Assembly (NCBI RefSeq): GCF_037042905.1
Contig: NC_087245.1
Coordinates: forward strand, 28,708,001 to 28,772,000
DNA length: 64,000 nt
Direction: 5' to 3'
From: Lytechinus pictus
Lineage: Eukaryota
The translations under genes and the position numbers were made by a program. Below, piece after piece: positions 19,648 to 57,600 of this stretch; position 1 is the stretch's first letter; the number at the start of each line of letters is the position of its first letter. The notes under the pieces were generated by a model. That model was not told where the DNA came from, did no database searches, and saw only the letters and a program-made list of their open reading frames with translations.

Positions 19648-22600
19648 ATGGGTGCATTTGCGAGTCTGTTTAAAAACCTATTTGGGAAGAAGGAGATGAG
19701 GATATTGATGGTTGGTCTGGATGCTGCTGGTAAAACAACAATTCTATATAAACTCAAACTAGGTGAAATTGTCACAACCATTCCAACAATTGGTGAGTAC
19801 TGCCCATCGTAAAGCTTTGGCCAGACTTGGTTTGGTTTGATCCTAGGTCATGCCAGGAGGTCCCGCAACATTCTTGTGTTAAATCTTAATTAAGATGAAA
19901 AGCTTTCCCCGCAACATGATATTTTCCATCAAATTGCCTGCATGTTTTTGAGTTCATATTTGTGATGCCTGGGTATATGGTTATGAAGTTACGCATAAGT
20001 TTGTACACGCATAATGAAATGAACCATTTTTTGAAAATGTGTTTTTGTGGACAAATCCAATATATATTGAGTTTTGAGATGAAAATGTATAATTACCCTT
20101 GTTATTGTTTAGTAGATGCATGATCGTAGAAAAGCTGGTAAATATAAATTGGTCGAAAAATCGTTCGAAAAATCACAAGATATTGAATAAAAAAAATATA
20201 TTAGAATATGATTTAGAAGCCACAATCTATTGGAAACAGCACTTAGTTATTAAGAGTAACAACAACATCAAGTAAAAAAAAAAAAAACCTACATCTTTAT
20301 AAATAATTTGAGTTACTACTTTTAAAGGACAAGTCCACCCCAACATAAAGTTGATTTGAATAAGAAGAGAAAAATCCAACAAGCATAACACTGAAAATTT
20401 AATCAAAATCGGATGTAAAATAAGAAAGTAAAGTTTTGCTTAATTTCACAAAACAGTTATACGCACATCCTGGGTGGTATGCAAATGAGGAAACTGATGA
20501 CGTCATCCACTCACTATTTCTTTTGTATTTTATTACATGAAATATTCTAATTTTCTGCTCATTGTCAAGTGAAACAACGCTTAATTCTTCCCTGAACATG
20601 TGGAATTAGGCATTGTTTAATACTATATGCTTCAGTCAACTTTTTCCTTATTGTCAAATCTCCAAAAAATAAAATATTGTATAATTCAAACAATAAAAAA
20701 CAAAAGAAATAGTGAGTGATGGACATCATCGACCGACTCATTTGCATGACACTTAAATTGTGCATATCATTGTTTCGTGAAAAATAAGCGAAACCTTAAA
20801 ATGCCATTACTTTCTTATTTTACATCCGATTTTGATGAAATTTTCAGCGTTAGGCTAGAGTGATTTTTCTCTATTTATTCAAATCAACATTTTACTTGGG
20901 TGGAATTGACCTTTAATTTCACAGTGTACTAAGGCCCCCTGTCTTTCTATGCATCAAAAGCCCAGTCTATTTTGGGTTAGTATGTTTTTATGCATGAGGC
21001 ATATGTGGGCATTTGGGTAAATCAAACTAGTACAGTATGTATGTAGGTAGTTTTGACAAATTTATAAGTGAACTCATTGAATATCAATTGCTATGAAAAT
21101 CAGCATGCATGTTGTCTGTGATATGATCTCCAAGACTTTATATCATGATATTTTGCATGAAACAAAATATTATATTTAATAGTGCACTATTTTATGTTAA
21201 TACAGTGTATATATGGTACATTAAATCTGATGTTAGATATGAAGGGGCTACCCTTTTCTGTCTACCTGTCTGTCTGTCTGATTCATTCTATTACTTAGTG
21301 TCTCTATCCATTCCTCTCTTTCTGTCTCTTTCTCTCCTTGCACCGATAAGTGTATTCTGTCCAAGTTTCTAAAGTGGTACTGTATACTGACCTATTGTTT
21401 TGATTGAAATAGACTTTGAATGTTTATTATTGTTTCATTCAGGTTTCAATGTTGAGACTGTGGAGTACAAGAACATCAGCTTTACAGTGTGGGATGTCGG
21501 CGGTCAGGATAAGATCAGACCGTTATGGCGTCACTACTTCCAAAATACACAAGGTAACAAATATAATTTGATTTGCCCTGCATATTTTGCTGTATAGCCC
21601 ACAAAGTATACTTCCAGAAGCCTATGAAAGGACTTATCAGATATTTGAGAGGTTGTAGTTTTCTGAATTTGGGTGTCAGTTTGTTCTATGGTCATTGTTC
21701 AATATAGTCAAATTCTAGAGCTGTTTTGGGTATTTGTGTGTCATTGACTTGAAAATAGGATCTGGGTCATTGCTGTGTTGATTCCAATAAGAACTGCTAA
21801 TTTTCTATACGGCGCTTTTGTTATTAACTTATAACTTATAATTTTTTTATATACCAGTACTTTTAAAAGCCAATACATAATACATAAGCTTTATTTGTTC
21901 AGTTTTGATAACTGATTTGCTCTTTAATATTTACACCACTAAAGAAAAATTTGCGTGGGTTGGCACTACACTTAATTCTTCTATTTTTTTTCAGGTCTCA
22001 TATTTGTAATAGATAGCAATGACAGGGAAAGAATGATTGAAGCAAAGGAAGAACTCCATAGAATGCTGAATGAAGATGAACTACGAGATGCAGTCCTCTT
22101 AGTGTTTGCAAACAAACAGGTCAGTTCAAAATGATAATGCTACATTGCTAAAACCCCATTCCATTGAGAGCAAGATCCCTGAAAGACCACTGAAAGACCA
22201 CTGAAAGATCTCTGAGAGACCATGGATCTTGCTTGATCTTTCAGAATTCTTTCCATGGACTTTGCCTGGTCTTTCAATGATCTCTGCAAAATTCATGAGA
22301 GACTGTCGAAAGATCATGGAAAGACCAATGAGAACTTTGGATATTCATCGAAAGACCACTGAAAGACTGCTGAAAGACCATCAAAAGACCAATGTCCTGT
22401 AAGACCGCGTAAAGACTGTTTTGAACCGTTTCAAAAAGTTTTGGAGCTCATGGAGACCATGAAGACCAGTGAAAGATCCACCAGGAATAATAAAAGACCT
22501 CAGAGATCTTTGAAAGTTTGTTGGAAGACCTTTGAAAGATCAAGCAAGTTTCATGGTCTTTCAGAGGTCTTGCTCTCTGTGGAATGGGGGTTTTAATAGT

Positions 22601-54682: not shown

Positions 54683-57600
54683 ATGGGTGCATTCGCAAGT
54701 ATATTCCAAAGCTTATTTGGGAAGAAGGAGATGAGGATATTGATGGTTGGTCTGGATGCTGCTGGTAAAACAACAATTCTATATAAACTCAAACTAGGTG
54801 AAATTGTCACAACCATTCCAACTATTGGTGAGTATAGTTCTTTTTCCTCCAACTCCTGTTTACTTAATGTGGTCAAAAACTTCAATAATTTGGGAGCCAA
54901 GTGTAAGAGAAATTCTTTATAGTGATTGATTCCCTACGAGTTAGGGTTTTCACAGACTCACACTTACAACATTGTCTGGCATTTTCAAGTGTGTAAACAT
55001 AGACTTTTTTATGTCTGTCAAATGTTCAAATTTGCTGTTATAACAAGTTTGATCAAACTGGCCCCTGGTGAATAGGTTACATGTATGTTTGGTAGTTGGG
55101 AAATTTCTCCCATACTTAGGGCAGTAATCAAAGTATTCCAAAGATAGCATTTTGTTTCATATCTTCATAGAAATATATAATACAGATTAAAACCTTTTTT
55201 TTTTAAAGATGATATTCCAGTCATTATTTTGGAAGAAATGGAGGGGGGGGGGGGCATGCTGGGGAACAATTCTGGCCTTGATTCTATTCTGTCTTCTCTC
55301 TTTCTTGTTCTACTTGGCATTCACTTCATACAGGATTATGGATTATGTGCTTGATTTGTCAAGAGGGTTGCTTGTTTTTGTGCATGATGCAAGTGTTTGA
55401 GGGTGTGTTTGTGTACATGCCTCAATCCATTATCCTTTACTCCCCCCCCAAAAAAAAATGATGACGTTTGCAATTGCTTGTGAAGACCACCTCAAGGAAC
55501 CCTCAAGAATGTTTACCCTGTAACCGTCTTGGGTGGAGGAGGGGGCTGATTCTGCTAACCTGACTATTTTTTGTGATAAAACTGCTACGTGAAAAGTATG
55601 GCAACAGTGATGAGTGGTTTCCCATAAGGATAATTTCCCCACTTTTCACAGTCAATCAACTACCCCAGGGCCAACCACCCTTAAGAAAGTGCCCCCCACA
55701 TGTTCAACCCCTTGGACAACGGCCCATAACTCAAAGACATTTACCCCCAATACATGTTGTGTACCATAACCTAGTGTATTGTTTATTATAATAATACACA
55801 AATAATGAATGTTTATGAGTTCAATGGACAGAAAACTTCATGAGGTGAAAGATGAAATGATCCATTCATTTCATCGTTTGCCAAATGAAGTATTTTTGTC
55901 CATTGCACGAATGAAGAGAACATACATTATTTGATTTATATGACACCTAAAAATAGATACTTTTTCATTTGAAATTTATGAATTGCAAAATATACTGTTT
56001 TGTGAACCCGGTCTGTTGATAGTCGCTTACATACAACATGCGCACTGCAAACGGTGTTTTTACTTGTGGTGCCTGCGGTCTCAGTGCGCATGTGCAATGG
56101 ACAAATTCATTTGAATCCAGAATTGCACGGATGATGACGTCATCGTAAAATGGGCTGAATGATCAACATCAAAACATCCAATCAAATGACAAGGTTCTAT
56201 GATCCTATCTAGCTGTCATATGATTTAAAAAAATGATGATAATAATAATAATAAACCATGTTATTGTTTCATGCAGGTTTTAATGTGGAGACTGTGGAGT
56301 ACAAGAATATCGGCTTTACAGTGTGGGATGTCGGCGGTCAGGATAAGATCAGACCGTTATGGCGTCACTATTACCAAAATACACAAGGTAAAAAAGGCTT
56401 ACATTATTATTGTGTGTTAATGTACATATAGGTTCTAATAAGTTTGGATTATTTTAGTTGAGGTGATATATGTGGAAATATTAACAATAATTCACTTGCA
56501 AAATTGGATTTGACATTCTATAATATCTATCTACATCATTTTCATGGTATCGTCTTTATAATCGTGATAATTGTGAATATGATCATAATTATTTCTCATT
56601 TTCTTCATCAATTCAGCTCATCGGTTCATACATCCATATTTAGTTTCATATGGACGTGACTATTAATCATGACAATTCATGACAGACCTTCCTTGCAACA
56701 AATCTAATTTCTCGTTAGTGTTATATTTATATTATCGTTTTCATTAACTATATTTAAAGTTTACTGATGTGTTTGCATTATAATTCCTCTTTTTGTTTTT
56801 AGGTCTCATATTTGTAGTAGATAGCAACGACAGGGAAAGGATGGGTGAAGCAAAAGATGAACTTGATAGAATGTTGAACGAAGATGAATTACGGGATGCA
56901 GCCCTCTTAATATTCGCAAATAAACAGGTCAGTTGACATGTACATCTATTCAATAATTTTTTTTACTATATGAAATTTCACACCATGTGACAAATTTATT
57001 CGCGGAAGAGGTTTATGTTCCACCTGTAAAGTGGTGAATCCTGGGTGGACTAAGAAAGGTGGATAGAGGTAGAAGTGAAATGGAGAGGTGAGAAGGTTGA
57101 AGGTTGGAAGGGTAAGCCCCTATTCCACTATGCCGATTTAACTACGATTTGACACACCTGCAGGTCGGGCAGGATCAGGCGGAAAAATTAACCATTTTAC
57201 TGGGAGTTAGTAAAAAATAATTTGGATAAATATAATTTGTCAAAAGGAACTGGGGGTTCATTATGTCCGTGTGCCGCTGTTAGTACGCCAGGAATGATTA
57301 CGCTCATCCGATGACTGCATGCCGTGTTGCTGACGCTTTTCTTGCTTCCCCCATGATTGAAAATGGGTGTTTTCTGATCGTGAAGATCGGCATGAAATTT
57401 AGCTTTCGCCGATCTGAATAAAATGCCCGCTTTTACCCCATCTTCACAACGCTGTTATTACGCTACTCCCGATTTCAACCGATTCGTATCCCGCTCTCCG
57501 CTGATCTAATGATCGGGACAGATTGAAGTTTCAGATCGTGATAGTGGAATGGCCCCTTAACGTATTCTTTTCTGAGATGAGTGTGGTACTTAACAAAGAC

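Follow-up and report, generated by a model that had tools for sequence, protein, structure and literature searches.

Exchange between duplicated genes has been described in several systems close to the locus reported here. In Tigriopus californicus, inter-paralogue gene conversion between GOT1Sd and GOT1Sr is largely limited to exons, the intron being too divergent for alignment (PMC3728101). The three tandem HMA4 paralogues of Arabidopsis halleri (HMA4-1/2/3) show mosaic divergence, with long repeat-holding introns that escape conversion (10.1101/2025.10.29.685298). The R and S copies of ATP1A1 in Leptodactylus lie in tandem on the same strand, and across species their silent differences fall near the residues that distinguish the paralogues (10.1101/2020.08.04.234435); for the primate red/green opsins, a peak-of-divergence model has selection restricting conversion around paralogue-specific residues (PMC3924837). 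Arf1 itself is often multi-copy and duplicates readily, with Arf1a-c in S. purpuratus and Arf1a-b in Nematostella and Amphimedon; in the main text of that source the terms "gene conversion" and "concerted" do not occur, and none of its four uses of "tandem" concerns Arf1 arrays (PMC8358228). Here we analyze a 64,000-nucleotide (nt) window of Lytechinus pictus, the whole stretch of DNA from 28,708,001 to 28,772,000 of NC_087245.1, which contains three Arf1 genes labelled A, B and C. Their pattern of identity very probably reflects non-allelic gene conversion that acts on DNA in short, recurrent tracts, starts where selection holds the protein invariant and ends at diverged introns and paralogue-specific residues. 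The process is textbook; its operation on Arf1 would be a new instance of it.

Set beside these reports, the Arf1 locus shares with GOT1Sd/GOT1Sr a largely exon-limited pattern and an unalignable intron, but GOT1 comprises two copies, one apparently decaying, whereas the three Arf1 genes are intact and present in two species. The long introns of HMA4 differ by no more than ~6%, and conversion there was demonstrated through shared polymorphism; the Arf1 introns are unalignable and known from one assembly. The ATP1A1 work combined nucleotide trees over five species with functional assays, while clustering in Arf1 is seen in two of three pairs and is sequence-based. The opsins reverse the geography: there, divergence sits in an exon and homogenisation in the introns, whereas in Arf1 the exons are homogenised and the introns diverged. 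A literature search, in which subscription papers were thinly covered and bioRxiv supplements lay outside, returned no title on conversion among Arf genes.

The three genes lie on the + strand, spaced 13-35 kb apart, and each has four coding exons of 145, 111, 125 and 156-165 nt in open frames, separated by GT-AG introns at matching positions. Gene A (19604..24177, 178 aa) has coding exons at 19648-19792, 21443-21553, 21995-22119 and 24022-24177; gene B (41402..44542, 181 aa) at 41443-41587, 42737-42847, 43580-43704 and 44378-44542; and gene C (54634..57952, 181 aa) at 54683-54827, 56277-56387, 56803-56927 and 57788-57952. A tblastn search across the window found no Arf exons beyond these. For A, the acceptor preceding the coding sequence is predicted at 19604 (+), and A presumably has a non-coding exon upstream; a CpG scan for first exons located none. 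The products match exactly database proteins labelled Lytechinus pictus (A, P0122; B, P0032; C, P0197). Against solved structures in the PDB, the A product matched ARF1 best (E 9e-103, 345 bits), followed by ARF5 (315), ARF4 (314) and ARF6 (276). We classify all three as predicted class I Arf (Arf1) GTPases, A by this structure match and B and C through their likeness to A and their database names. All three translations carry Gly2, which we take to be a putative myristoylation site, and intact GTP-binding motifs.

A 101-nt block spanning codons 14-47 occurs without mismatch at 19687-19787 in A, 41482-41582 in B and 54722-54822 in C (all +). None of its 31 silent-capable codons varies, in agreement with the original prediction of three-way identity that includes synonymous sites. 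We take these codons to encode beta1, the P-loop, alpha1 and the start of switch I. Around the block, identity between B and C extends to 113 nt (41482..41594 in B, +), reaching 7 nt inside the intron, and identity between A and C extends to 109 nt, beginning 8 nt before the block (C feature 54714..54834, +). Two further identities that had been predicted were recovered: the 111-nt exon differs between A and B at one nucleotide, coding sequence (CDS) position 156, and most of it falls in a 104-nt A=B tract (21454..21557 in A, +); and a 50-nt B=C tract lies in the last exon (44465..44514 in B, +; 57875-57924 in C). These are the longest tracts particular to their pairs. Overall the identical tracts measure 20-113 nt, different tracts are common to different pairs, and most tract ends lie inside exons. 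The identity is centred on exons rather than restricted to them, as had been described: A and B also share sequence outside exons. A 34-nt A=B tract spans the predicted upstream acceptor (19583..19616 in A, +; partner 41381-41414), 21 nt of it intronic; 25 nt of the 5' untranslated region (UTR) are identical; and 86 nt at the 3' end of intron 1 match at 74%. Past the stop codons, at unequal distances from them, lies a candidate conserved 3'UTR element: 101 nt that match at 75% between A 24693-24792 and B 44629-44729.

Silent divergence changes sharply along the gene. The proportion of silent differences (pS) rises from 0-0.04 in codons 14-47 to 0.04-0.17 in codons 48-86 and 0.20-0.45 in codons 87-128, reaching 0.48-0.65 in codons 129-156 and 0.56-0.80 in codons 1-13. 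The 5' part of the last exon is strongly diverged, as had been noted earlier, with a proportion of replacement differences (pN) of 0.25-0.38 in codons 129-156; this paralogue-specific segment, codons 128-156, occupies 24022..24108 (+) in A, and its equivalents start the last exon of B and C. Among 136 degenerate codons that encode the same residue in A, B and C, 37 vary: none of the 31 in the block, 5 of the 36 in codons 47-86 and 32 of the 69 outside codons 14-86. An invariant run of 31 codons, the longest present, was reached in 90 of 200,000 permutations (p 4.5e-4) and in 152 of 100,000 when permutations were stratified by degeneracy (p 1.5e-3). Silent heterogeneity over six segments was also significant (chi2 34.6, p 1.8e-6), although the segments, unlike the run test, were picked after the data had been seen.

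Identity of this kind could have arisen through recent duplication, with the introns, N-terminus and last exon diverging unusually fast. The age of the copies was addressed by comparison with L. variegatus, for which proteins only were used. All three genes are present in that species, and their last exons are near-identical to those of the L. pictus orthologues. Orthologues differ at three residues for A, none for B and six for C, nine in total, and B is identical to the first 181 residues of L. variegatus P0004. Between paralogues, by comparison, 20, 23 and 29 of 178 positions differ, and 18, 16 and 24 of these differences, respectively, are common to the two species. On residues 86-177 (92 columns; bootstrap not converged), a 52-row tree pairs the orthologues, A and C each at 99/96 and B by identity, while its deeper forks are without resolution. 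These protein comparisons place the triplication before the split of L. pictus and L. variegatus, a minimum age on which recent duplication fails to explain the silent identity. Silent sites in the diverged segments moreover differ by 48-80%, and every intron interior is unalignable. In favor of recent duplication, inspection by eye pairs no member of the S. purpuratus Arf1 trio clearly with a single one of A, B and C (PMC8358228 supplement), and Diadema proteins have no resolved place in the tree, so that the age given above is a minimum. We regard recent duplication as extremely unlikely.

A very old date was considered and set aside. Diadema P0201 and P0205 carry Tyr81 and Ala119 as C does, but the tree did not group them with C. 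S. purpuratus Arf1b carries a mix of A-like and C-like residues in a by-eye comparison (PMC8358228 supplement), and does not date the triplication. In the literature passages searched, the divergence of L. pictus from L. variegatus was not dated. The six differences in C, against none in B, include Gly in place of the conserved Ser61 (Gly in 2 records versus Ser in 131), and C is possibly evolving faster in this lineage.

When intron interiors were aligned, all nine pairings scored within the range given by 30 shuffles, which bears out the claim that the introns are unalignable beyond splice-proximal stretches. Without gaps, intron identity drops to the background level by +11 on the donor side and -21 on the acceptor side. 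The first eight informative intron positions at splice sites are more alike than in non-homologous introns, at 0.69 versus 0.32 for donors and 0.69 versus 0.41 for acceptors. The genomic islands of homology are ~110-220 nt long.

The introns had also been said to carry different transposons. By comparison within the window, transposon-like inserts were identified in introns 1 and 3 of A and in intron 1 of C, with a possible further one in intron 3 of C; none was found in the introns of B. Intron 1 of A holds an element resembling a miniature inverted-repeat transposable element (MITE) at 20322..20916, with terminal inverted arms of 110 nt. It belongs to a MITE-like family of ~600 nt with long inverted arms, in which it is the copy at 20321-20921; other copies lie at 16548-17130, 25305-25897 and 52269-52600. 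Intron 3 of A holds a palindromic element and, from translation, a decayed fragment resembling a long interspersed nuclear element (LINE) at 23390..23830 (-), ends approximate. The fragment matches DUF6451 at E 3e-5, below the curated cut-off, and an Atlas search with it returned unnamed clusters plus the DUF6451 lead only; its LINE label is our assumption. A repeated, partly palindromic element lies in intron 1 of C (55777..56199), with a copy at 53996-54344.

Small homology islands in a background of diverged introns would also be expected from RNA-templated homogenisation, by recombination with complementary DNA (cDNA) or RNA-guided repair, which would track the spliced message and ignore introns. 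The abrupt loss of intron identity and the modest size of the islands agree with such a template, as does the spliced CDS, in which codons 14-90 contain seven variable sites across two exon junctions. The message would not carry the intronic sequence shared by A and B, namely the 21 nt at the upstream acceptor and the 86 nt in intron 1, although the A=B intronic tract could equally be explained by inherited conservation of a splice signal. No intron has been lost, with all three retained in each of the three genes; tract ends fall mostly within exons; and the signal is 5'-biased. Reverse-transcribed templates are usually 3'-biased. We consider an RNA template very unlikely. The template was probably genomic DNA rather than cDNA, in view of the A/B intronic stretches, the retention of all introns, tract ends within exons and the 5' bias.

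Constraint on RNA sequence had been named in the original prediction as the alternative to conversion. RNA folding of the block was no more stable than that of shuffled sequence (sense z +1.33, antisense z 0.00), and no Rfam match was found in the window. For comparison, Arf loci were drawn from metagenomes as the best 80 of 461 confirmed stretches; two failed the similarity threshold, and the other 78 supplied 81 Arf copies. As no locus was recognisable as sea urchin, the set bears on deep constraint only. Against the block, 35-87% of silent-capable codons differ in these 81 copies (mean 63%), and exact matches extend over at most 23 nt. Several codons common to A, B and C are rare among the 81 (AGG in 6, ATA in 8, CTG in 8, and Leu CTA in 2 and 3). 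Deep RNA constraint is therefore not supported, as silent sites in these eukaryotic Arf copies are free to vary. Two tandem Arf pairs, which we take to be plant-type from their N-terminus, served as controls (L079 3291-10034 and L080 9245-18029). Their introns align at 72-78%, and of the 31 codons of the block 4 differ in one pair and 6 in the other, more than in the urchin trio, whose introns are unalignable. The second copy of L079 has a short internal duplication close to its last exons.

Purifying selection on nucleotides could instead be lineage-specific, with splicing enhancers, an RNA element or codon-level constraint preserving codons 14-86 without exchange. It would fit the coincidence of the low-divergence zone with the protein-invariant zone and the raised likeness of splice-adjacent intron positions. 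It would not predict the missing fold and Rfam matches or the freedom of silent sites in the other 81 copies. Variation is highest (6 of 8) in the start-adjacent codons 2-13, the place to expect constraint on initiation, and C changed six residues between species, including Ser61, yet its block is unchanged. Together these observations make lineage-specific selection very unlikely.

An assembly could also produce three-way identity if cross-talk in polishing wiped out genuine copy differences, and the window does hold further exact duplications of 1,259 nt and 2,610 nt, real or not. All three loci, on the other hand, have unique flanks, which should give reads a correct mapping place, and single paralogue-specific bases survive right next to the tracts and in the gaps between them. 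At the amino-acid level, every L. pictus and L. variegatus record examined agrees over residues 14-60. Cross-talk of this sort seems highly improbable, and both it and RNA constraint are judged less likely from indirect evidence.

Short-tract ectopic conversion, as originally predicted, thus remains the best fit, since the paralogues predate the species split and deep RNA constraint is not seen; its support is indirect. The proposed sequence of events is as follows, and in it we infer both the use of one copy as template and the role of selection. Purifying selection would hold residues 14-86, which we take to be the nucleotide-switch half of Arf, near-invariant, so that these exons stay the sole islands alike enough to pair. 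A break in one copy, repaired off another, would overwrite silent differences and keep the island convertible. Tracts would fade ~10-90 nt from the splice sites, the introns having diverged and gained insertions. Tracts that overwrite paralogue-specific residues, mainly 129-156, may fail or be purged, leaving peaks of silent and replacement divergence there. The proposal that conversion is limited by intron divergence accordingly needs widening: the intron interiors are diverged, but in two of the three pairs paralogue-specific residues also appear to bound the tracts.

The effect of such residues was sought in the placement of silent differences. Between B and C, these cluster around residues at which the two paralogues are distinct in L. 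pictus and L. variegatus alike, with 20 of 45 codons varying within 3 codons of such a residue and 2 of 50 at more than 10 codons (p 0 of 20,000). Silent differences between A and C also lie nearer paralogue-distinguishing residues (p 0.008). Possible traces of exchange are present in the proteins as well, where at two of the nine interspecies differences, positions 5 and 104, the alternative residues both occur within the set of paralogues. Gln5 of L. variegatus A is also the residue of B in both species, and to reach it from the GCG codon of A in the window takes at least 2 nt changes, the sole multi-nucleotide change among the nine. In the window, A has Glu104, as B does, within a 24-nt A=B tract, whereas L. 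variegatus A and C have Asp. The two residues are suggestive of conversion at the protein level. Over codons 2-13, L. variegatus A agrees with B at the protein level.

Several observations weigh against conversion or limit what can be claimed for it. Gln5 is also found in P0093 and L004, and Asp is common at position 104 in the family (Asp in 96 and Glu in 68 of 242 proteins), with Diadema having Glu104; given this recurrence, both protein hints could be homoplasy. Silent differences between A and B show no clustering near paralogue-distinguishing residues (p 0.20), a failure attributable to the six silent differences in the codons 2-13 island, and where clustering does occur it can also be produced by local relaxation or multi-nucleotide mutation. 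Pair-specific run tests were non-significant (p 0.88, 0.07 and 0.05), and a test for site patterns that vary along the gene was too (p 0.077); these results therefore do not demonstrate topological mosaicism. The cross-species data are at the protein level, and the defining signature of conversion is species-specific silent changes common to paralogues. Lineage-specific constraint keeps a small probability, since none of the 80 metagenome loci could be placed as sea urchin. The codons 2-13 island itself, in the N-terminal helix (19651..19686 in A, +; 41446-41481 in B), has eight A/B differences, six of them silent, and is flanked by two identical A=B tracts; it is left unexplained by the conversion model.

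If conversion is the correct explanation, the locus provides a clean example of exchange persisting on exon-sized homology after introns have become unalignable, and residues 129-156 are the place to seek what distinguishes the three sea-urchin Arf1 isoforms. In practice, probes, guide RNAs and primers placed on codons 14-86 would match all three genes, the mapping of short reads in this region is ambiguous, silent-site dating of these Arf1 duplicates misleads, and gene models at the locus become fused (P0003, P0004). Double-Arf gene models occur in 15 named invertebrate species from six phyla, among 27 proteins, with one divergent model in Halichondria. Such models (P0003-P0018, P0031, P0038) come from sponges, corals, molluscs, a brachiopod, a nemertean and echinoderms; a single Pecten contig carries three of them. 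A tandem Arf pair was seen directly in genomic sequence at L004 4401-9387. Because the window genes each have their own stop codon, the double models are probably fused neighbours. The models and the L004 pair suggest that tandem arrays of Arf1 are widespread among marine invertebrates and that annotation often wrongly turns them into fusions. We raise, as a speculative and rather doubtful extension, the idea that such arrays are in long-term partial concerted evolution, in which switch exons are homogenised via ~100-200-nt islands 13-35 kb apart while selection protects the paralogue-specific N-terminal helix and a surface made up of residues 129-156, so that Arf1 isoforms would share a regulator-binding face and differ in localisation or partners.

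The window contains other repeats. An exact direct duplication of 1,259 nt at 13347-15874 (starts 13347 and 14616) either arose very recently in tandem or is an artefact of assembly. Between A and B, 30129-34649 holds three tandem copies of a ~1,520-nt unit, with 2,610 nt repeated exactly. Related repeat segments lie at 28306-28688, 37199-37725 and 39208-39614, the first two with a 16-nt tandem unit in opposite orientation; these segments are possibly the ends of a larger transposon between A and B. At 6143-7895, a TAC microsatellite of ~121 copies is followed by a complex 31/83/114-nt minisatellite.

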